NCBI GenBank assembly: GCA_965267605.1
Contig: OZ254088.1
Span: 1,354,790 to 1,418,789, forward strand
From: Vicingaceae bacterium
Lineage (GTDB): Bacteria; Bacteroidota; Bacteroidia; Flavobacteriales_E; Vicingaceae
Direction: 5' to 3'
DNA length: 64,000 bases
The first letter of the stretch is position 1, and each line of letters begins with the position of its first letter. Below, in pieces: positions 5,207 through 52,976 of this stretch. The position numbers and the translations under genes are program-made. A model generated the notes under the pieces. That model was not told the origin of the DNA and made no database searches. It saw only the letters and a list, made by a program, of their open reading frames with translations.

Positions 5207-5438
5207 TTAGCTCTACTTGATCCGAGTACTCTTGCAGAACCGTCTTATTGTCTTGCACTTCGATCCAACGGATTTGATTCAAGCCAGTGAGTTTCCACAC
5301 TTCCACAAAGAATCCGTTACACGTGAACAAAGAAACCATGTGTTCTCCCGAAATTCTCGACCCTACGAATTCGCCTTCCTGCTTGAGTATTGAATACCGC
5401 TTCTGAAGTGACAGTTTGCCAAAAGCACGTGCATCCAT
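5187..5438 (-). CDS. Hypothetical small protein (about 83 aa), speculative
   Basis: ORF whose start overlaps the stop of the repeat-protein gene. No recognisable motifs. Confidence 0.2.
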   Translation of the reverse strand: MDARAFGKLSLQKRYSILKQEGEFVGSRISGEHMVSLFTCNGFFVEVWKLTGLNQIRWIEVQDNKTVLQEYSDQVELINHLPV

Positions 5439-7894
5439 CAAAACTTAATCTTGGTTGTGTGGGTTCCCTTCTTCCCTTTGTTTGGGAGTTTAACACCGCT
5501 CTTGTTGTCCTTGGATTCTGTCTTATTCACTTTGAACCCAGCCTTCTCCTCCTCCCTCTGTTTGATGAGGTTCTCAATTTCCTTGATCTTCTGCGTTGGA
5601 TATTCCTTTTCTGGCCACACATCGTGTGCTTCCTGGTACTTGCTCTTGGCTTCTTCCAAAGCATCCTCCTGAAGCTTCTTATCTGCAGCAGCAATCAAAC
5701 TGTTGTATTTGGTTTGCTTTTCCTGCAACTCGGCCCTTCTCTTTGCTTCTGCCTCTTTTTGAGCTTCAATAGCTGCAGCCGCCTTAGCCCGCTCTTCTTC
5801 TTCCTTTAGTATTCTGAGTTCCGCAAGCTTCTTATCTATTTTGGCGATCTGTTCTCTAGGGTATTGCTCGTTCTTCTTGATCCTTGTGGCAAGCAGGTAC
5901 TTATCGCGCGCTGCATCCCATTTCTCCTTGTCATAAAGCGCATCTCCTGAGGATATTAGCCCCCTGTACTTTGTTTCTGTCTCTGATTTAGCTCGCGCTT
6001 CTTCTTCAGCTTTTCTCTTCGCTTCGGCAAGTGCAGCCGCCTTGGCTTCTTCTTCCGCTTTGCGTTTTGCTTCTTCCTCAGCCTTACGTTTAGCCTCTAA
6101 CTCAGCTTTTCGCTTTGCTTCCTCTTCTGCTTTACGCCTGGCTTCTTCCTCCGCTTTCGCCTTCGCCTCAGCTTCGGCTTTCAACCGTGCCTCTTCCTCA
6201 GCTTTTCTCTTCGCCTCCTCCTCTGCCTTGGCTTTAGCTTCAGCCTCTGCCTTCAAACGAGCTTCTTCTTCAGCTTTCCGCTTCGCTTCCTCTTCTGCCT
6301 TCCTCTTTGCATCCGCCTCTGCTTTAGCTTTTGCTTCCGCTTCAGCCTTCAACCGTGCTTCCTCTTCCGCCTTCGCTTTGGCCGCTGCTTCAGCTTTTAA
6401 CCTTGCTTCCTCCTCTGCTTTTCTTTTCGCCTCTTCTTCAGCTTTACGTTTTGCTTCTTCTTCAGCCTTGGCTTTGGCTTCTGCCTCTGCCTTCAATCGC
6501 GCCTCTTCATCCGCTTTCGCCTTAGCTTCTGCTTCTGCCTTTAATCGAGCTTCTTCCTCAGCTTTGCGCTTTGCCTCCTCTTCCGCTTTCAATCGAGCTT
6601 CCTCTTCAGCCTTTGCTTTAGCCTTGAGTCGTGCCTCTTCTTCTGCTTTTCTTTTGGCCTCCGCCTCCGCTTTGGCTTTTGCTTCAGCTTCTGCCTTTAG
6701 ACGTGCTTCCTCCTCTGCTTTCCGTTTCGCCTCTTCTTCGGCCTTGCGTTTTGCTTCTTCCTCCGCCTTCGCTTTAGCTTCTGCTTCCGCTTTCAATCTG
6801 GCCTCTTCTTCCGCTTTACGTTTTGCTTCCTCCTCCGCTTTTCTTCTGGCCTCCTCTTCTGCTTTCGCTTTCGCCTCCGCCTCTGCTTTCAGGCGAGCTT
6901 CTTCCTCCGCCTTTGCCTTAGCCTCAGCTTCAGCTTTAAGTCGCGCTTCTTCCTCAGCTTTTCTCTTCGCCTCTGCCTCTGCTTTGGCTTCCGCTTCTGC
7001 TTTGAGGCGTGCTTCTTCTTCCGCTTTCGCTTTAGCATCAGCTTCTGCCTTAAGCCGCGCCTCTTCCTCCGCCTTGGCTTTAGCTTCTGCTTCTGCTTTC
7101 AAACGTGCTTCTTCCTCAGCTTTAGCCTTTGCCTCGGCCTCAGCTTTCAACCTTGCCTCTTCTTCGGCTTTGCGCTTCGCTTCTTCTTCCGCCTTAAGTT
7201 TATCATCTTCCAATCTCTTCAGAGCCGCTTCGGCTTCTGCTAGTTTCGCCTTAGCGGTAGCATCTCCTGGTTTTGCGGATAACGCTTTTTGAAAACTACT
7301 CTTGGCACCATTGTACTCTTCCTTACCCATCTTTCGCGTACCATCCGCCATTGCATCTTCGTACAACAACTGCTTTCTACGCTCCTCTTCCTTCTTACGA
7401 TCATACTCCTCCAACAGGTCAGCAATTCTGTTCTGCATTTTGCTGGTATAAGCGAAATCCCAATCAATTTCATTGGAAGACGCATTGTACCTCGAAATAC
7501 CTATAGGTTCATTAAGGAGCGAGAAGTTCACCCCCGGAATATTTTCGAACAACGACATCTCCACAAAGAAGTCCTTGATCTTATACATCTTGTCTGCAGG
7601 CACCCCCTTGGTATCGATCTTGATCTTCTTACTTACATAACCACTCATGGAAAACTTGATCATGTAAATGTGTCCGAAACGAAGATCATACTGGAACTTA
7701 CCATTGGAAGCTGTACTACCTGTTTTGTAAGCGTTTCCGTCTTCTTTGATATCAACAGTAACACCGCTCAGCTTATCGCCCCTTTCAAAGTGCTTCACCA
7801 CACCAGAAAGCTCCAGCGTAGCCTCCTCTTCCTGAGCAAACAAATAGCCTACAGGAAGCAATAACAGTAAGGAAAGCAGGTGTTTTATCATCAA
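5438..7894 (-). CDS. Secreted protein with an N-terminal carboxypeptidase-regulatory-like (CarbopepD_reg) domain, TPR-like helices, and a central Glu/Lys/Ala octad-repeat region of about 430 aa (ER/K single-alpha-helix-like spacer)
   Basis: Signal peptide MMIKHLLSLLLLLPVGYLFAQ. The N-terminal CarbopepD_reg-like fold is LSGVVKH...GKFQYDLRFGHIYMIKFSMSGY. There are about 55 consecutive AEEEA(K/R)(R/L)K / AEAEAKAK octads. Both flanks are TPR-like. Confidence 0.75.
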   Translation of the reverse strand: MMIKHLLSLLLLLPVGYLFAQEEEATLELSGVVKHFERGDKLSGVTVDIKEDGNAYKTGSTASNGKFQYDLRFGHIYMIKFSMSGYVSKKIKIDTKGVPADKMYKIKDFFVEMSLFENIPGVNFSLLNEPIGISRYNASSNEIDWDFAYTSKMQNRIADLLEEYDRKKEEERRKQLLYEDAMADGTRKMGKEEYNGAKSSFQKALSAKPGDATAKAKLAEAEAALKRLEDDKLKAEEEAKRKAEEEARLKAEAEAKAKAEEEARLKAEAEAKAKAEEEARLKAEADAKAKAEEEARLKAEAEAKAEAEAKRKAEEEARLKAEAEAKAKAEEEARLKAEAEAKAKAEEEARRKAEEEAKRKAEEEARLKAEAEAKAKAEEEAKRKAEEEAKRKAEEEARLKAEAEAKAKAEAEAKRKAEEEARLKAKAKAEEEARLKAEEEAKRKAEEEARLKAEAEAKAKADEEARLKAEAEAKAKAEEEAKRKAEEEAKRKAEEEARLKAEAAAKAKAEEEARLKAEAEAKAKAEADAKRKAEEEAKRKAEEEARLKAEAEAKAKAEEEAKRKAEEEARLKAEAEAKAKAEEEARRKAEEEAKRKAELEAKRKAEEEAKRKAEEEAKAAALAEAKRKAEEEARAKSETETKYRGLISSGDALYDKEKWDAARDKYLLATRIKKNEQYPREQIAKIDKKLAELRILKEEEERAKAAAAIEAQKEAEAKRRAELQEKQTKYNSLIAAADKKLQEDALEEAKSKYQEAHDVWPEKEYPTQKIKEIENLIKQREEEKAGFKVNKTESKDNKSGVKLPNKGKKGTHTTKIKF
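5970..7220. repeat. Coding tandem repeat: about 50 near-identical 24-bp units (gct-tcN-tcN-gcc/ttt-Ncg-ctt-tgc...) inside the 5438..7894 gene
   Basis: Visible periodicity on the + strand (gcttcttcctcagctttgcgctttgcctcc...). It encodes the AEEEAKRK/AEAEAKAK octads on the - strand. Confidence 0.85.
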
Positions 7895-28207: not shown

Positions 28208-30361
28208 GTGCGCGTTTACCTCTCCATACTCTTTGCGCTGCTATCGCTTGCCGGTACAGCACAATTTCAACCTTCACCATTCACGTATAACCGTGATTCG
28301 ATCATTAAGTACCGCAATCTGCTTGAGAATGCTACTTCCAGAAAAGATCGATTTCGCATACTTGTTAGACTATCGGCCTACTACGCAAACAGCAATAGTC
28401 CCACCGAGATAGACTCTGGTTTGCTTTACGCACACATTAACCTTAGAGAAACACCGGAGGATCACGTAGCCAATCGCGCTCATATCTATCACCAAATAGC
28501 TTTATGTCATATTAGTCAAAGGGATATGATGGGAAGTGTTGAGGCGAGCATTGAGTCTATGCGTCTCTACGAGCAGCTTGGAAAAGATTCACTGGCAATG
28601 ATGAAGGCCTTCGCAATTGGCAACATCTATACACACTTAGGACAGATCAGCAAAGCCATTCCTTATCACCTTAAAGCCCTGAAATATGCAGAGAAGCATG
28701 ACTATAAGCTCGAATACATGCGAATTTGCTCAGGAATTGCGGACTCATACCGTATCATGGGTGATTATACCAAAGCGATCGACTACTCAAGTAAAGCACT
28801 GAACGCGGCCATTAAGTCAGGCAATGATATCCGAATCGGATATGCTTACTACAGTCTCGCCAGCATCATGTACGAGCAAGAGAACTTTGAGAAGTCGATT
28901 GAGGTCATGCGAAAAGGAGAACAACACTTTCAGTCAAGTGGAGAACGCCATGGTGTTGCCTTGTCTCAAAACCTTATTGGAGCTTCTTATGCCGAACTGG
29001 AGCAATTCAACAAAGCGCTGTTCCATTTAAAGAAGGCGCGTAGCATATGGATTGTGGACAGGATGAAGGAACCTTATGTTGCCTCTGTAGATGAGGTGCT
29101 GGGTCTTGCCTACTACAAACTCGGGCAAGACGACAAAGCCATACAGATACTGGAAAACGCCATCCGAATTTGTACAGAAAAAGGCTACTATCAGCAATTG
29201 GCAAGTTGTTACAAGACCCTGTACCTGGTGCACAATCGAAAGAAAAACTTCCAGCAGGCATTGGATGCTTACGTGAACTATTCTACTTATAACGATTCCG
29301 TTGCCGATCTGGCAAATAGAGAGGCACTTGACAAGCTGGAAAGTGAACACAAGGAAGACACGAAGCAACTGATGATTGATAAACTACAGGCTGCTAACGT
29401 TGCAAGGGACAAGGAATTCGAACGTCAGCGCTGGCAAAACATTGCGCTGTTCGGATGTCTTGGATTGGCCGTAGTATTAGTGATTATTGCTTTGATAGGC
29501 TATAACAACAAACGCAGATCAGTGGTGCTGATTAACGAACAGAAACAGGAAGCGGAAGAGCAACGAGAATTAGCCAACGAGCAGCGGCTCATTGCCGAAG
29601 AGAAGAACAGGGAGATTCTTGATTCCATTTCTTACGCCAAGCGTTTGCAGGATGCGGTGATTCCACCTGCTGCACAGTTCATTCAGAACTTTAGCGAGGG
29701 TTTCGTCCTTTTTAAACCCAAGGATATCGTATCGGGTGATTTCTATTGGATGAGCACCTCCGGCAGCGCTGTTTACTTTGCCTGCGTAGACTGCACCGGG
29801 CATGGTGTGCCAGGAGCAATGGTGAGCATGGTGGGCAACAATGCTCTCAACAGGTGTGTAAGAGAATTTGGTTTGACTAAGCCTTCTGAAATATTAGACA
29901 GGTTGTCTGATCTTGTTGAAGAAACATTCAAGGATTCTACCTCCAGCGTTAAGGATGGAATGGACATTGCCTTGTGCAAGTTTGACAGAGATGCGCATAC
30001 GCTGGAATACGCAGGTGCCAACAATCCACTTTGGATCATTCGTTCCAACGGGAACGAGGTAGAGGAGACAAAAGCGGATAAGCAACCCATTGGGTGGTTC
30101 TTCGAGAAACAACCCTTTGTAAATCATGAGGTAGCACTCAATCCGGGCGACAGCATCTTCCTTTTTTCCGATGGATATGCCGATCAATTTGGGGGACCAA
30201 AGGGTAAGAAATTCAAGTACCGTCAACTGAGGGAACTCCTTTTAGCGCATAACAATAAGTCGATGGGTGAACTCGAATCCATTCTGCATCAGAAGTTCGA
30301 AGAATGGCGTGGAGAGCTTGATCAAATAGACGATGTATGTGTTTTGGGTGCTAGGGTCTAA
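28208..30361 (+). CDS. Sensor protein: N-terminal signal peptide and TPR repeats, one transmembrane helix, a coiled coil, then a SpoIIE/PP2C phosphatase domain
   Basis: TPR-like helices through residue about 400. The transmembrane segment is IALFGCLGLAVVLVIIALIGY. The PP2C block (DIVSGDFYWM...VDCTGHGVPGAMVSM...FSDGYADQFGG...IDDVCVLGARV) is paralogous to 20727..22253. Confidence 0.8.
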   Translation: MRVYLSILFALLSLAGTAQFQPSPFTYNRDSIIKYRNLLENATSRKDRFRILVRLSAYYANSNSPTEIDSGLLYAHINLRETPEDHVANRAHIYHQIALCHISQRDMMGSVEASIESMRLYEQLGKDSLAMMKAFAIGNIYTHLGQISKAIPYHLKALKYAEKHDYKLEYMRICSGIADSYRIMGDYTKAIDYSSKALNAAIKSGNDIRIGYAYYSLASIMYEQENFEKSIEVMRKGEQHFQSSGERHGVALSQNLIGASYAELEQFNKALFHLKKARSIWIVDRMKEPYVASVDEVLGLAYYKLGQDDKAIQILENAIRICTEKGYYQQLASCYKTLYLVHNRKKNFQQALDAYVNYSTYNDSVADLANREALDKLESEHKEDTKQLMIDKLQAANVARDKEFERQRWQNIALFGCLGLAVVLVIIALIGYNNKRRSVVLINEQKQEAEEQRELANEQRLIAEEKNREILDSISYAKRLQDAVIPPAAQFIQNFSEGFVLFKPKDIVSGDFYWMSTSGSAVYFACVDCTGHGVPGAMVSMVGNNALNRCVREFGLTKPSEILDRLSDLVEETFKDSTSSVKDGMDIALCKFDRDAHTLEYAGANNPLWIIRSNGNEVEETKADKQPIGWFFEKQPFVNHEVALNPGDSIFLFSDGYADQFGGPKGKKFKYRQLRELLLAHNNKSMGELESILHQKFEEWRGELDQIDDVCVLGARV

Positions 30362-46460: not shown

Positions 46461-49400
46461 CTACCTACCACCAACACCTATAGTATTGGAATTGTTCTTA
46501 GGTGCTGATGGTTTCACAGTTGGTTTCGTAGGCGTTGTTGGACGCGTGGCTGGCTTTGTCGTCTTCACCGGAGTGGTCGGCTTTGTAGTTGCAGGTTTCG
46601 TGGCTGGCTTGCTCGCAGGCTTGGAACTGCCGCTACTAATCACCTTACCTACATTCTTAATTACACTTGGTGTTGTAGGTTTCGGCTGTGGCTTTGGCTG
46701 CGGTTTTGGTTGCGACACTGGCTTCGTTGGAGCCGGCTTGCTTGGTGCAGGCTTCGTTACCTTAGGAGCAGGACGCGGGGCTGGCCTAGGAACCGGCTTT
46801 GGAGCTGGCTTAGGTTTACCTTCCAATCCACCTGTTCCAGTTGCTGGAACAGGTCTTTTCACCGGACCATTCCTTACACCGCCCGGTGGAGCCATCCTTC
46901 TCTGGTTTCCTCCGCCCGGAGTACATGAGCTAGCCTCGCTCAATGTTACCAGTATAACGCAATCCTGAAGATCGTACCAGCTAACATTGGTCTTGTTCGT
47001 ACCAAGCTCAAATAGGTAGATCGCCTGGTTTGGTTGCAATACCATCTTACCATTCGCAACATACCCAGTCAGGTAAGCTTCAATATTGCTTTGTCCTGCA
47101 AATCCTGGCACATTAGGAACAGGATCGTTATGACGCAACACTTTCACAAACGCTGGGTGCGAAGCTGAGCTATACTGGTACGCAGGAGAACTTTGGTTGC
47201 TCGGACTGTAAGATTTCGCTTTAACAGTGATGTTGGTATTCGCTGGATATGTTGATGGCGATTTCCACACGTGCTGATATCCATCGTTCACATCGCTGGA
47301 AGTATTGAAGCCGGCATAGGTTCCAAACGGATCCACGGTGGAGCCACCAAAGTTCACTTGTACCATAACCGGGTAATTCGCTCCAGTACCGCCTACCTTA
47401 AGCGCACATCCCAGTACCTTGACCTCAGCGCAGTAGGTCTTGTTCGGCTTCACTCCGCCACCCCCAATATCGAAGTCGAACGGCTCACACTTGATGGTTA
47501 CAGAACCCGAAGCCATTCCTGCCCTGGTCTGTGCTGTTACCGTATAAGTATGTGTTCCAGTGATATTGTCAGTCCATTTTACACGATTGTTTGAGAATGT
47601 CCATCCATTAAACATTTTACCATCTTTCTTCACCTTGATCTCATTCTGCTTAGCGTTCAATACCTCAAACTCCACTTCTGCAATACAATCGTCATCAGTA
47701 AATGGTGAAGAGCCCGGCTTCTTCAATGTTACCACCGGAGGCGGATCACAAGGCCCCAGGTAATCTCCATGGGCCTGGTGGGCTGGCCAGGCACTCTTAG
47801 GAATTGTAATGGTTTGAGGGTTACCATGATTTCCCGGTGGAATGTGACAAATAGTAATTCTCTCCTCACAGGTTACTGTTCCGCTAGCCGATGCACTACC
47901 TCCTGCATTTGTTACGCTAACTGTATAATTAACTGTGCCTGTAATTGTTTCTTTCCACGTCACCTGATTGTTGCCAAACGACCAGCCTGTGAACGGAGCC
48001 CCATTCTTAGTAACAGTTACTTGGTTAGCGGAACTGATATTCGTTGTTGTGAACTTCATATCAGCCTCGCAGTTAGGGTCCGTATAAGGAGATTGCCCAG
48101 GTTTTGTCCTCACCACAGTTGGAGGTGGCGGACATGCACCTTGAATTGCTCCTTGAGCCTGATAAGAAGCCCATTGGCTTTGCTTAATCGTCTTGGTCTG
48201 CGTATTGTGGCAGATCGTAATATCTGGATCACAATCAATGATTGCTGTTACGCTTGCAGTTCCACCTGGGGTGGTTGCTGTCACCACATAAGTTGTTTTG
48301 CCTGTGATATTATCATTCCATGTAATCTGGTTGTTGGCAAAATTCCAGTTCGTAAATGGTGAGCCATTCCTCGTTACCGTAAGCTCATTCCGGCTATTCA
48401 CGAACTTCGACTCAACAATCACATCTGCCTTGCAATTTGGATCCATGTACGGAACCGTAGCTGGCTTCTTCAGTGTAAGAATTGGCCTTGGCGTCATTGA
48501 ATTCGAACAAGGCCCTTTCGTTGCCCCTTTAGACTGATAGGTTGGCCACTCGCTTTCCTTAATCTGAACAGCCTTAGGTGAAAGCTGACCTGGTGCTTTG
48601 TAGCAGATCCAAATCAATTTATCACACTTGATCGTGATAGAGGCACTGGCCGAACCTGCCGAATTTGTTCCTGTGATGACATACGTTGAATTCTTCGCAA
48701 TTTGATCCGTGAAGACCACCAAGCCATTGGTGTACGTCCACTTGCTCACTGGGAACACTGCGCCATCCTTTTTGATAACCACACCTTGCTTCAGTTTCAC
48801 GTTGGTTACCATAGCCTTAACCGTTTCTGTACAAGTGGTACTCGTGTAAACCGGTCCCTGCGGTTGCGTAATCGTAACCGTTGGCGGCAGCTCCTTGATA
48901 GGCTTAGTGTAGAAAATGCTTGTTGTCGCACTTGCCACGCCTACCCCGTTGTTCACTGTAATAACAACAGGATTTCCACCAGGCTTCAGGTTAGCTGTGA
49001 ATTGAATGGTTTGTGTAGCGCTGCTGAATGTGAATGCAGTTAAACCTTGTCCGTTTAAAGTCACTGTAATCTGTGACTTGGTAGAAATGTAAGTAGTGGT
49101 TGCCTTTACAACATGTGTAGCCTTGTTTGTTGAGAATGGATTCGTGCCCGGATCGGTGATCTTAACGGTTGGAGGCAATACCTTTGGCACTGGTGTGTAG
49201 ATCACCGTAGCTGACTTCGAATCACTCCCAGCACTATTTGTTGCCGTAACCGTAAGAACATTGTTCCCTTTGGCAAGTGTACTCTTTAAGGTTACCTGCC
49301 CTGTAAGTGTATTGAAGCCAAAGTTGCTTTGAGGCGCACCGTTCAGGCTAACTTTTACCTGTGATGCCGTATTTACATTGAGCACCTTTGCTGTCCACGT

Positions 49401-52400
49401 GAACGGTGCCGTCTGAACATTCTTCGGGCTTGTTGACGGATTCGTGATCTTAACAATAGGTGGAACCACTTTAGGCTTAGGCTTCTGGTATATCACCGTT
49501 GCGCTCTTACTATCTGTTCCCGCACTATTGGTTGCTGTAACCTGCAACAGGTTGCTTCCTAACACCAGGTTGGATGGAAGTGAAACAACTCCCGTTGAAG
49601 GTGTAAAGCTGAAGGTATTGGTCTGCGCGCCATTCAGTTTCACCACGATCTGATTCTTATTGGTAACGTTCAACACCTTCGCAGTCCATGTGAAAGACGC
49701 TCCCTGAACACTCATTGGAGAGATCAAAGGGTTGGTGATCGTAACCACGGGTGGAAGAACCTTCTCTGCAAGGATCGTAGTACCAGATCTTGTGGCTGAG
49801 CCCACCGAATTGGTAGCCGTTACCTTGAAGATATTGCTTCCCTTAATTAGTGTTGAAGGAAGTGTTACCTCACCTGTGTTAGCGTTGAAGGTATAGTTCG
49901 TTACCGTCTGCCCGTTTCGCTGCACCACCAACTGGTTCTTGTTCGTGATGTTAGTAACAACTGCTTTGAAGGTGTATGCTGCATTATAAACAGTCTTCGG
50001 GCTAGGTGAAGGAGCCGTAATCACCACTGTTGGTGGCAGCAACTTAGGTTGCTTCACATAGTTGATAACCACATTGTCAGAAGCTGAACCTGCTGAATTC
50101 GTACCCTTTAACGTTACAGAGTTAGATCCCAGTATCAAATTCAATGGCACCGTTACCTGCATCGTATTTGCGTTAAACGTGAAGTTGCTTTGATTAGCGC
50201 CATTCACTGTTAGTTGCAACTGACTCTTCTGGCTGATATTGGTTACCTGGGCGATAGCTGTGTATTGTGCAACCCCTGACTGGGCCGGGGAAACTGACGG
50301 CACAATAAACTTCACTGTAGGAGGATTAACCAACTTAGGCTTGTAAACAATCTGCGTAGACGCCTGAGCCGTTCCATCCTTGTTCGTTCCAATTACCGTA
50401 ATGTTGTTGCTACCCGGCACCAGTGTTAGTGGCAACTGTACCTGCCCGGTTCCAGGAATGAACGTGAAGTTTGTGGTTGTTGCACCGTTCACCTTCACAG
50501 TTACCTGGCTCTTCATGGTTACATACAGCACAGTTGCAAGCGCGTTGTAGTTTGCGCTATACACTGTTTTTGGACTCACCGCTGGAATCTGGAAAGACAC
50601 TATTGGAGGTCTCTTCGGAAGCACCGGGGGTGCGTATTCAATCACTGTTGACTTACTATCCTTTCCATACGCGTTTGTACCTGTGATCTTCACCGTATTC
50701 GCTCCCTTGAGCAGGTTAACCGGAATTGAGATCTGTTTGGTACTGGTAGAATATGTAAAGTTCAATGTGATGGAACCATTGATAGACACCACGATGTCTT
50801 TGGAAGACTTCACATGATGCACCGTACCACTTACCATGAACTGGTTGACGTTCACCTTGTACGGTGATGTAGCCGGTTGCAAAATGGTAACTACTGGAGG
50901 CGGACCAGAATCCTCGATCTGATATACGATCAGAGTTGCATCCTTTGCAGTTCCATCGGCATTCTTACCCATCAGTTCGAATGCGTTGTTGCCTTTGATC
51001 AATGTGGCCTGATACTCAAATTCGCCCGTTGTGGTATTGTACTTGAAGCCAGTAATCGATTTTCCATTCTGCTTGAAGTACAGATTCTTGGCATCGGTCA
51101 CATTCTTCACCTGAGCCTTAACCAGATAACTACTGTTCTTAACGGTGGCAGGTGATGTTGCAGGATCTGTGAAATTCACCAATGGTGGGTTCTTCGCCTG
51201 TACCTGCTTATAGAATATCGTCATTTGATCCTGGGCTGTTCCATCCAGATTCTTACCCTTGATCACTACTGAGTTCGCTCCCGGAACCAGAGGGTGTGTT
51301 GCAATTACCTTTTTGGTATTGGCATTGTAAACGAAATCGTAAATACGCTTACCGTTGAACAAGTACTCGATATCAGTCTTACTCCCCACGTACTTAACAT
51401 CTGTTGTAACTGTAGTGCTTGGTACGCTTGTGTTGTACGGTCTTGTATTTGGAACAATGATGTTCACGATCGGTGGGCGCTTGTCCGCAAGCTTTCCTCC
51501 GCCAACACCACCGGAACCAGAACCTCCGCTACCGCCAGAGCCACCGGAACCACCTCCACCAGAGCCGGAACCTCCGCCTCCACCGATGCCTCCGCCAGCT
51601 CCGCCACCACCGGAACCATCCCACTTATCCCAATCGATAGGTTTGCGCCCGAATTGCCATTCAACCGTAAGCCCTACGAAATGCTGAACATCATTCTTGA
51701 ACAAACCGGTTCTCGGGGCCTCAAAAGCCTGACCATCCAACTCACTGTGTAGTGGGAACGTCATTTTATGCTCAAAGATCATAGCAAAGCCCTGACCCAG
51801 TTGGTATCCAATACCATAGCCAAGGGTTGGTGCAAGGATGGAATTTCTTCTTCGGCTGTTAAATCCGTCTGATTCGTATTCACGGTCTCGGATTATTCCA
51901 CCTCTACCCTGTCCATCTGCTACGTTATCCCAGTTGTAAGGAGTGTTGCGGTCTTTCTGATCAATGTTGACTTTAGTGCTATAAAGTCCACCTCCACCAA
52001 ATCCATATAGCACGATGCCAGTCTGCTCGCGCAATCTGTTAAGACCAAGTACGAGTTCAGCAGAAGCTTCGTGCGCCAGTGTTGAATGATTGGCGAAATA
52101 CCTACCACCAAGAGAGTCCGTAAAGTTTAGTGAAGGATCGTATGTTCCATTCACTGAAGGATCAATGTTTGCTGTGAACGAGGGATCTCTGTCTGCACCT
52201 AGAGTCCAGGCACATAGATAACGTGCTCGTATATCAACGTGCAGGAAGCGTCCTCTTTTCTTGTAAATGGAGAAGCCGAAATGGCCTCCACCGCCTAACC
52301 CGGCCTTGTCATCTACATCACTGGTTTGAAATGCACCTCCAAAGCTGGCACCTAGTTGAAATCTACCACCGTTTGTGTGAGTGAATGTATTCTGCCCAAA

Positions 52401-52463
52401 GGAATTGGGAAGAAGAAAAACGATGAGAATGAGCGAAAAAAAGTAGCGTAATTTCCTGTTCAT
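46461..52463 (-). CDS. Giant surface protein of about 2,000 aa: signal peptide, an N-terminal OMP beta-barrel-like domain of about 260 aa, a poly-Gly/Ser linker, more than 13 tandem Ig-like repeats, three Cys-containing modules of about 120 aa, and a basic Pro/Thr/Lys-rich C-terminal tail
   Basis: Signal peptide MNRKLRYFFSLILIVFLLPNSFGQ. Alternating-hydrophobic strands end in ...FVGLTVEWQF (aromatic-terminal barrel signature). The linker is GGGGAGGGIGGGGGSGSGGGGSGGSGGSGGSGSGGVGGG. The repeats have the pattern PP.V.I..P..SP..V....FT..A.V.NV..K.Q..V..NG....NF.F...TG.V.LP..L..G.N...VTATN..G. Start trimmed to ATG 52463. Confidence 0.8.
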   Translation of the reverse strand: MNRKLRYFFSLILIVFLLPNSFGQNTFTHTNGGRFQLGASFGGAFQTSDVDDKAGLGGGGHFGFSIYKKRGRFLHVDIRARYLCAWTLGADRDPSFTANIDPSVNGTYDPSLNFTDSLGGRYFANHSTLAHEASAELVLGLNRLREQTGIVLYGFGGGGLYSTKVNIDQKDRNTPYNWDNVADGQGRGGIIRDREYESDGFNSRRRNSILAPTLGYGIGYQLGQGFAMIFEHKMTFPLHSELDGQAFEAPRTGLFKNDVQHFVGLTVEWQFGRKPIDWDKWDGSGGGGAGGGIGGGGGSGSGGGGSGGSGGSGGSGSGGVGGGKLADKRPPIVNIIVPNTRPYNTSVPSTTVTTDVKYVGSKTDIEYLFNGKRIYDFVYNANTKKVIATHPLVPGANSVVIKGKNLDGTAQDQMTIFYKQVQAKNPPLVNFTDPATSPATVKNSSYLVKAQVKNVTDAKNLYFKQNGKSITGFKYNTTTGEFEYQATLIKGNNAFELMGKNADGTAKDATLIVYQIEDSGPPPVVTILQPATSPYKVNVNQFMVSGTVHHVKSSKDIVVSINGSITLNFTYSTSTKQISIPVNLLKGANTVKITGTNAYGKDSKSTVIEYAPPVLPKRPPIVSFQIPAVSPKTVYSANYNALATVLYVTMKSQVTVKVNGATTTNFTFIPGTGQVQLPLTLVPGSNNITVIGTNKDGTAQASTQIVYKPKLVNPPTVKFIVPSVSPAQSGVAQYTAIAQVTNISQKSQLQLTVNGANQSNFTFNANTMQVTVPLNLILGSNSVTLKGTNSAGSASDNVVINYVKQPKLLPPTVVITAPSPSPKTVYNAAYTFKAVVTNITNKNQLVVQRNGQTVTNYTFNANTGEVTLPSTLIKGSNIFKVTATNSVGSATRSGTTILAEKVLPPVVTITNPLISPMSVQGASFTWTAKVLNVTNKNQIVVKLNGAQTNTFSFTPSTGVVSLPSNLVLGSNLLQVTATNSAGTDSKSATVIYQKPKPKVVPPIVKITNPSTSPKNVQTAPFTWTAKVLNVNTASQVKVSLNGAPQSNFGFNTLTGQVTLKSTLAKGNNVLTVTATNSAGSDSKSATVIYTPVPKVLPPTVKITDPGTNPFSTNKATHVVKATTTYISTKSQITVTLNGQGLTAFTFSSATQTIQFTANLKPGGNPVVITVNNGVGVASATTSIFYTKPIKELPPTVTITQPQGPVYTSTTCTETVKAMVTNVKLKQGVVIKKDGAVFPVSKWTYTNGLVVFTDQIAKNSTYVITGTNSAGSASASITIKCDKLIWICYKAPGQLSPKAVQIKESEWPTYQSKGATKGPCSNSMTPRPILTLKKPATVPYMDPNCKADVIVESKFVNSRNELTVTRNGSPFTNWNFANNQITWNDNITGKTTYVVTATTPGGTASVTAIIDCDPDITICHNTQTKTIKQSQWASYQAQGAIQGACPPPPTVVRTKPGQSPYTDPNCEADMKFTTTNISSANQVTVTKNGAPFTGWSFGNNQVTWKETITGTVNYTVSVTNAGGSASASGTVTCEERITICHIPPGNHGNPQTITIPKSAWPAHQAHGDYLGPCDPPPVVTLKKPGSSPFTDDDCIAEVEFEVLNAKQNEIKVKKDGKMFNGWTFSNNRVKWTDNITGTHTYTVTAQTRAGMASGSVTIKCEPFDFDIGGGGVKPNKTYCAEVKVLGCALKVGGTGANYPVMVQVNFGGSTVDPFGTYAGFNTSSDVNDGYQHVWKSPSTYPANTNITVKAKSYSPSNQSSPAYQYSSASHPAFVKVLRHNDPVPNVPGFAGQSNIEAYLTGYVANGKMVLQPNQAIYLFELGTNKTNVSWYDLQDCVILVTLSEASSCTPGGGNQRRMAPPGGVRNGPVKRPVPATGTGGLEGKPKPAPKPVPRPAPRPAPKVTKPAPSKPAPTKPVSQPKPQPKPQPKPTTPSVIKNVGKVISSGSSKPASKPATKPATTKPTTPVKTTKPATRPTTPTKPTVKPSAPKNNSNTIGVGGR

Positions 52464-52524
52464 AAGCAATACGTTTCCTCTAGCTGTAGCAGTTATCATG
52501 CCAAAAGGAATATTGCCCTAAAAG

Positions 52525-52560
52525 TATAATAAAAAAGCCCCCCGTTACACGGGGGGACTC
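52525..52560 (-). terminator. rho-independent terminator (minus strand), 60-100 bp upstream of the giant gene's start
   Basis: Minus-strand RNA reads GAGUCCCCCC-gugUAAC-GGGGGGCUUUUUUAUUAU, a GC-rich 6-bp stem followed by a U-run. Confidence 0.6.
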
Positions 52561-52976
52561 TCTTCGTATAGTGTACCGATTCCCTCTCGGTTTATTTGCT
52601 CTAATACATTGGATTAGAGGCTACTACAAGCGCATCAATGAATTGCTGCATAGCCTTTACACAATACCTCGAAGAACCGGAAACGGGCGAAAAGGCACGC
52701 TCGCTATGGACATGGTAATTCTCTGTGCCTGATATAACCAGATTGTCCGCCCATTCCGGTTGTACATCGCTTCTTAGGATCAGTGACGTTGACCTATTAA
52801 CCGCTACCTGCTGACAAGCCAAGTCCACCTTTCCAGACTTAGCTCTCGCATATGAAGAAATGTCACGGATCCAACCTAACGCTAGAATCGATGTTTTTCG
52901 AGATTTCATACCCCTTTAACACCAAACCCTCAGGATTCCACAAATGGGTTAGAAAAACTTGATCAAACTGGCTGTA

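Follow-up and report, generated by a model that had tools for sequence, protein, structure and literature searches.

A giant Ig-repeat protein of a Vicingaceae bacterium with a predicted eight-stranded, PorG-like barrel belongs to a large Bacteroidota family

The locus described here raises the question of where in the cell envelope a giant immunoglobulin (Ig)-repeat protein is held, when it begins with an outer membrane (OM) beta-barrel and lacks the C-terminal domain (CTD) of type IX secretion system (T9SS) cargo. The protein is encoded by a single unbroken open reading frame (ORF) of 2012 amino acids (aa) on the minus strand of a 64,000-nucleotide (nt) stretch of DNA from a Vicingaceae bacterium (contig OZ254088.1), which is referred to below as the window. 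The original prediction, made from the sequence alone, proposed a signal peptide, an N-terminal barrel ending in VEWQF, a Gly/Ser linker, a chain of Ig-like repeats and a basic Pro/Thr/Lys tail, and this anatomy was borne out by the translation (Table 1). Its two suggestions for the function of the barrel were an inverse autotransporter of the intimin/invasin type (type Ve) and an OmpA-like anchor of a cell-surface fibre. We showed that the barrel models as eight strands, that its nearest sequence family is PorG, and that the protein belongs to a large, so far unnamed Bacteroidota family. The chain behind the barrel would then start in the periplasm.

The absence of a T9SS tail was confirmed. 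Scans of the protein with Pfam and NCBIfam revealed neither a type A (Por_Secre_tail) nor a type B (CHU_C) CTD, and four neighbouring secreted proteins in the window match Por_Secre_tail. A CTD hidden by a frameshift, a possibility that had been raised at the outset, was also checked: the ORF is intact and a small CoA_binding_2 gene begins 2 nt past its stop codon, so that no such domain can hide downstream. The same two databases gave nothing significant for the whole protein or its pieces, and no OmpA_C, LysM, SPOR or other known peptidoglycan-binding domain was detected among them.

The barrel was examined by structure modelling and by alignment. In an AlphaFold2 (AF2) model it consists of eight strands, with short turns on the side of the two termini and three long, poorly conserved loops, modelled at low confidence, which face away from both termini. 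Two of the turns (T1 and T3) comprise 3 residues each, and the third (T2) comprises 7 (window NRLREQT, consensus NRLRERTG). In an alignment of 151 barrels T2 was among the most conserved barrel elements (2.87 bits per column) and the long loops scored lowest within the barrel (1.7-1.8 bits), which fits an orientation with the loops outside and the turns inside.

These features bear directly on the type Ve proposal, according to which the C-terminal passenger is exported by way of the lumen of the protein's own N-terminal barrel, which has 12 strands. The present protein resembles intimin and invasin in the order of its parts, with a barrel preceding an Ig-repeat passenger that ends in a lectin-like domain, and this order and the nature of the passenger are all that speaks for such a mechanism. 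The barrels of intimin and invasin are 12-stranded, hold a linker in the lumen and are accompanied by a periplasmic LysM domain, whereas the present one models as eight strands, in which a linker in the lumen is unlikely, lacks LysM and matches them in neither sequence nor fold. When the barrel alone was compared with Pfam, no family was found even at E<=10, the inverse-autotransporter barrel included, and its profile gave no meaningful match to PDB sequences; the PDB matches of the protein were all to artificial GS linkers and fell in the linker region. We regard the type Ve explanation as very improbable, which corrects an attractive but wrong annotation that would have placed type V secretion in Bacteroidota.

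The sole family matched by all tested barrels of the protein family (13/13) was NCBIfam NF052316, "T9SS_PorG". The window barrel matched it with E 2.1e-5 and 24.4 bits, the best family member with E 2.6e-9, and in one relative (P0046) the match spans positions 6-204 of the 209 in the profile. PorG is an eight-stranded OM protein whose periplasmic C-terminal tail carries a cysteine that is disulfide-bonded to GldK Cys343 or PorK Cys356 (PMC12635249); two of its periplasmic turns are short and one is longer, the latter reaching PorK jointly with the C-terminal extension (PMC12365241). Studies published in 2025 showed PorG to be covalently hooked to the GldK/PorK track, which powers both type IX secretion and gliding (PMC12635249, PMC12365241). 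The likeness of the present barrel to PorG (PG0189 / Fjoh_1692) extends to the overall design, namely an eight-stranded Bacteroidota OM barrel in which one periplasmic turn is longer and the other two are very short. The differences lie behind the barrel: PorG comprises about 210-240 aa and ends in a short tail with the conserved Cys bonded to GldK/PorK, whereas here that tail is replaced by approximately 1,700 residues of folded domains.

The extent of the family was determined by an exhaustive hidden Markov model (HMM) scan, in which a profile of two barrels was compared with 1.84 billion cluster representatives. At E<=1e-3 the scan recovered 613 representatives with this barrel, so that the family comprises at least 613 sequence clusters; the number falls to 500 at E<=1e-10 and to 208 at E<=1e-30. 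A word-indexed homologue search with the barrel had yielded only one relative, a stand-alone 265-aa barrel (P0001), and the family is visible only by the HMM scan. Architecture was counted over the best 150 of the 613 representatives, to which all counts out of 150 below refer. The barrel is always N-terminal (residues ~5-280) and 122 of these proteins are at least 800 aa long (median 1290, maximum 2588), i.e. they carry a giant C-terminal extension; only 7 are shorter than 400 aa. Chains of the same type of Ig-like repeat follow the barrel in the relatives, in some of which Glucodextran_B, Cadherin-like and Big_7 exceed the Pfam threshold; many of the repeats are Cys-bracketed, and most members end in a low-complexity tail. 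The predicted barrel-poly-Gly-Ig architecture was therefore found to be widespread in Bacteroidota as regards barrel and Ig chain, but a Gly/Ser-rich linker is present in only 2/150 members, the linkers of the other 148 being rich in Pro, Thr and Asn.

The members are named "hypothetical protein", "large repetitive protein" or, once, "carbohydrate-binding domain-containing protein" in their sources. No Pfam or NCBIfam model describes the barrel-Ig family, and open-access literature text yielded no account of a PorG-like barrel with a giant extension, in line with the initial suspicion of an undescribed class. The result is a large unannotated family tied to the recent discovery about PorG. When one genome per GTDB species was scanned, with seeds from a 4-sequence alignment and T2 as one of two seed peptide patterns, 51 loci were obtained, all in metagenome-assembled genomes (MAGs), of which 50 are labelled Bacteroidota. 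They are distributed over Flavobacteriales (including Crocinitomicaceae, Parvicellaceae and Weeksellaceae), Chitinophagales, Saprospiraceae, Lewinellaceae, Marinilabiliales and Bacteroidales, and the complete family genes at these loci encode proteins of ~700 to 3,300 aa. The sole exception by label, L018 (contig CATLPG010000004.1), comes from a MAG assigned to Saccharospirillaceae (Gammaproteobacteria) and is probably a mis-binned contig.

This distribution also bears on the possibility that the gene is an artefact, arising by mis-assembly or by fusion of a small barrel gene with an adhesin gene. Stand-alone barrels of 255-295 aa do exist (P0001, P0004 and P0006), as such an origin would suggest; however, barrel and chain are joined in the same way in 122 of the best 150 representatives as well as in dozens of independent MAG contigs, and in the window the reading frame is unbroken, flanked by a terminator upstream and by a closely spaced gene downstream. 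We consider an artefact extremely improbable.

On which side of the OM, then, does the long chain lie? To the reading of the protein as an OM-anchored, periplasmic fibre or tether we give about an even chance. Removal of the Sec signal peptide, which has no lipobox Cys, would leave an N-terminal Gln; this residue (Q24 in the numbering from M13) is shared by at least 90% of the family barrels in the alignment. The PorG-like barrel would then insert into the OM, with its C-terminus emerging on the periplasmic face, as in PorG. From there would extend the Gly/Ser linker, 13 Ig-like domains of which the last four are disulfide-bracketed, a C2/lectin-like beta-sandwich and a polycationic polyproline tail of 150 residues. 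The barrel may dock, through the conserved periplasmic turn NRLREQTG, on the GldK/PorK layer of the T9SS/gliding machinery, probably in the manner of PorG, and the distal C2-like domain and the basic, TonB/TolA-like tail probably bind an anionic partner, which may be peptidoglycan or membrane phospholipid.

The topological part of this reading builds on a general property of even-stranded OM barrels, whose C-terminus lies on the periplasmic face: with an eight-stranded, PorG-like barrel, the following chain would start in the periplasm. Since such a barrel offers no lumen and the protein has no CTD, there is no known exit route for the chain. The idea of an OmpA-like barrel anchoring a cell-surface fibre was closer to the data than the type Ve layout, although the nearest family is PorG and the "cell-surface" part is unsupported by the topology, because the C-terminus of PorG is periplasmic.

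The relatives provide a possible link to the gliding apparatus. At 16-17 of the 51 loci (among L004-L054, e.g. L005 6577..9761), and beside the stand-alone barrel in L001 (126..2341), a divergent pair of genes, coding for an SprB-repeat protein with a type B CTD (CHU_C) and then for a PorP/SprF protein, is located ~140 bp upstream of the family member. This conserved pair appears to place the family beside adhesin-carrier modules of the gliding/T9SS system.

Several observations weigh against a periplasmic, PorG-like tether. Confidence in the barrel model, which was built from a 2-sequence alignment, is no more than moderate (mean pLDDT, the predicted local distance difference test, of 56). 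None of the PorG scores comes anywhere near the equivalog cut-off of 130 bits (24 bits for the window), and the defining tail cysteine of PorG is absent, there being no Cys between C96 and C1223; for these two reasons the barrel is best described as a distant paralogue or relative of PorG, not a PorG equivalog. The CHU_C/PorP pair is confined to Flavobacteriales-type loci and absent from the window, and its association with the family may therefore stem from inherited gene order and imply no functional link. The 1,700 C-terminal residues resemble a classical surface adhesin, with Ig repeats rich in Thr, Asn and Ser and a lectin/C2-like domain. Finally, at the rule-of-thumb value of 4 nm per Ig domain, 13 domains measure ~50 nm, which exceeds the typical width of the periplasm, so that the chain would have to lie sideways.

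A free, PorG-like tail cysteine was also sought in the relatives and rejected. A Cys soon after the barrel is present in 79/144 of them, but in 66/70 it has a partner ~79 aa downstream, which identifies it as half of an intradomain Ig disulfide and not as the PorG tail Cys. No canonical PorG or further paralogue was found in the window or in the fetched family loci.

Some of the above observations would be explained more easily if the Ig chain lay outside the cell as a surface fibre, anchored by the small barrel and exported by an undescribed route. Candidates for this route are export coupled to barrel assembly by the unusual Bacteroidota barrel assembly machinery (BAM), or the T9SS acting without a canonical CTD. 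We consider a surface fibre unlikely, but still a serious contender. The composition of the repeats and the types of domain (Big_13, Cadherin-like, Glucodextran_B, lectin/C2-like) are typical of adhesins, the length of the chain and the existence of members of up to 3,300 aa are awkward for a periplasmic protein, and T9SS cargo genes surround the gene in the window, as SprB-like/SprF-like pairs neighbour its relatives in other genomes. Moreover, the barrel is rich in Gly (36 of its 248 aa) and has ~40 Gly/Ser residues behind it, and in the present protein this side-chain-free linker could thread the barrel. Against this stand the position of both barrel termini on the short-turn side of the AF2 model, the periplasmic C-tail of PorG as the closest family, and the lack of a CTD of either type; to our knowledge, no eight-stranded barrel passes a polypeptide. 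In 148/150 relatives the linker is not Gly/Ser-rich, and conservation within the family is lowest in the stretch behind the barrel (0.62 bits). The poly-Gly linker as a family-wide threading device was accordingly rejected, as it occurs in 2/150 members only.

The chain itself was resolved further than in the original prediction, which placed at least 13 Ig-like repeats at 48930..51510. Only nine lie in this span; the number 13 is reached in all when the four Cys-bracketed repeats (aa 1204-1671) are included. The Ig repeats show weak Pfam matches to Big_13, Glucodextran_B and Cadherin-like, and they are diverged; at the DNA level the only tandem repeat detected is a 12-nt unit in the tail. Of the three Cys-containing modules noted earlier, all exist, and they proved to be inserts of 31-37 aa between the four Cys-bracketed repeats. 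They take the form ICH...W..(H/Y)Q..G...G.C (consensus ICHxPPGNxxNxQxxxIPxSAWxAHQAHGDxxGxC), and the invariant C, H, H, G, D and C positions suggest that the module might be a small, disulfide-stapled unit that binds metal. There is no Pfam family for it. It is present in 42/150 family members and also as stand-alone secreted proteins of ~65 aa of metagenomic origin (P0160-P0170), some with a signal-peptide-like N-terminus; the search with the module returned only these ~65-aa proteins and is uninformative on localisation.

The earlier layout had missed a globular domain of 190 aa (aa 1672-1862), which is situated between the last repeat and the tail and is predicted to be C2-like or LecB-lectin-like. 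Domains of this kind are also found as short separate ORFs of ~207 aa, in L002 (440..1063, P0002) and L003 (1755..2384, P0003). The former opens with an apparent end of an Ig repeat (...TFNC); it is perhaps no genuine stand-alone gene but a remnant, or a gene call that was truncated.

The 150-aa tail has a pI of 12.0 and contains 37 Pro, with 30 Lys and Arg against a single Asp or Glu. Tails of the family, which are PK-polyproline, ER/K or AKAE repeats, or (K/R)P polyproline with a basic end, carry a net positive charge in 79% of the members. PK-polyproline, ER/K and AKAE repeats are the chemistry of the periplasm-spanning spacers of TonB and TolA. The present protein shares with these spacers the polyproline or AKAE/ER-K helical repeats and the basic end, a likeness that is compositional and not one of homology; TonB and TolA extend outward from an inner-membrane anchor, whereas the present protein has its anchor in the OM. 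The view that the chain is basic throughout the family was rejected: its net charge is +5 per 100 aa here, but the family median is ~0, and members are usually positive only in the last 100 aa. The C-termini often read ...GGG(K/R), RGG(N/Q) or a run of Arg (P0005-P0153, L007-L046; window 46464..46481), with GG among the last 8 residues in 54/150 members as compared with 3% of internal windows. We know of no sorting signal that matches such GG-type ends.

A basic tail behind a C2/lectin-like domain might also belong to a generic, OmpA-style envelope staple unrelated to the T9SS or gliding, in which the OM barrel, an Ig spacer and the distal parts, binding peptidoglycan or the inner membrane non-covalently, would stabilise the envelope. 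An N-terminal eight-stranded barrel is indeed common to the OmpA family and the present protein. OmpA and OprF differ, however, in having the OmpA_C peptidoglycan-binding domain, which was not found here, and their C-terminal part is more than ten times shorter; the present barrel has no sequence match to the OmpA barrel families and is nearest to PorG. None of the known peptidoglycan-binding domains searched for was detected, and the range of chain lengths in the family (~700 to 3,300 aa) argues against a spacer of fixed length. We judge a staple of this kind rather unlikely.

A further comparison is provided by SprF/PorP and the adhesins with a type B CTD (SprB), in which Bacteroidota OM barrels likewise connect a long filament to the envelope machinery. 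There the barrel and the filament are separate and the filament crosses the OM via the T9SS with a CTD, whereas here the two are united in one polypeptide that has no CTD. In its predicted mode of action the protein resembles anchored envelope proteins of the OmpA or PorG type, yet it is a full member of neither group, nor of the type Ve autotransporters or the T9SS cargo.

If the favoured periplasmic placement is correct, the fibre would be a large envelope scaffold of a kind without precedent; an external fibre would imply a new display route. A more far-reaching proposal, which we hold to be doubtful, is that PorG-derived barrels dock on the moving GldJKN/PorKN track and trail an Ig fibre of an estimated ~50 nm or more in the periplasm, which would make such fibres candidates for the periplasmic "multirail" filaments or for bridges from the OM to the inner membrane, or else that the fibre is outside and the passenger is displayed by an eight-stranded barrel via an undescribed secretion route.

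Table 1. Features of the barrel-Ig gene and its product (positions are those of the window; aa numbering is that of the 2012-aa ORF)
Feature	Position (nt)	Strand	Remarks
Intrinsic-terminator-like hairpin, CCCCCCGTGTAACGGGGGG then T-run	52531..52564	minus	Between upstream T9SS-cargo gene and barrel-Ig gene
Whole ORF	46461..52499	minus	2012 aa; probable true start M13 at 52463
Sec signal peptide, aa 13-35, MNRKLRYFFSLILIVFLLPNSFG followed by Q	52395..52463	minus	Read from sequence; cleavage between ...NSFG and Q
PorG-like eight-stranded outer-membrane beta-barrel (predicted), aa 36-283	51651..52394	minus	Ends ...VEWQF
Conserved periplasmic turn T2 (predicted), LNRLREQTG, aa 153-161	52017..52043	minus	Between strands 4 and 5
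Flexible linker, aa 284-340	51480..51650	minus	Core aa 294-335 almost only Gly/Ser (about 51495..51620)
Nine Ig-like repeats of ~95 aa, aa 341-1203	48891..51479	minus	Self-alignment; each opens PPxV; region pI 10
Four Cys-bracketed Ig-like repeats, aa 1204-1671	47487..48890	minus	Alignment and Cys positions
Three ICH inserts, 31-37 aa, between the Cys-bracketed repeats	48504..48614, 48129..48221, 47745..47858	minus	
Globular beta-sandwich domain, C2-like or LecB-lectin-like (predicted), aa 1672-1862, ~190 aa	46914..47486	minus	
Disordered basic Pro/Thr/Lys tail, aa 1863-2012, ending ...IGVGGR	46464..46913	minus	Composition

The 5' border of the gene was defined from two sides. The N-termini of the family align to M13, and the strong terminator-like hairpin upstream (7-8 G-C pairs) ends only ~30 nt before the first ATG and ~65 nt before M13; the true start is therefore likely to be M13 and not the first ATG. 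The presence of this terminator implies that the barrel-Ig gene has its own promoter. The flanking genes in the window code for T9SS cargo (Sortilin/BNR with Por_Secre_tail), a DUF5686 OM protein and a major facilitator superfamily (MFS) transporter. None of the window's own neighbours (CoA_binding_2, the Sortilin/BNR cargo and DUF5686) recurs beside family members at the 51 loci.

No identical or near-identical entry for the barrel or the distal domain was found among 5.8 billion clustered proteins, in which the best match to the barrel was 28% identical; among the GTDB species representatives the identity reached 36-40%. The source organism seems to be unrepresented in the protein and genome collections that were searched.

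Two further observations concern other genes. A TPR-SpoIIE phosphatase gene (SiaA-like) is located at 28208..30361 of the window, 16 kb from the barrel-Ig gene and with no obvious DUF6272 or SiaC gene after it, and in 7 loci (L023 3370..6696 and six others) a homologous phosphatase gene, after which come DUF6272, SiaC and then lpxD and lpxC/fabZ, is situated upstream of family members. The window also encodes a second envelope protein with a long Pro-rich segment (5438..7894, minus strand, 818 aa), in which an N-terminal CarboxypepD_reg-like domain is combined with a Cornifin-like Pro-rich stretch.

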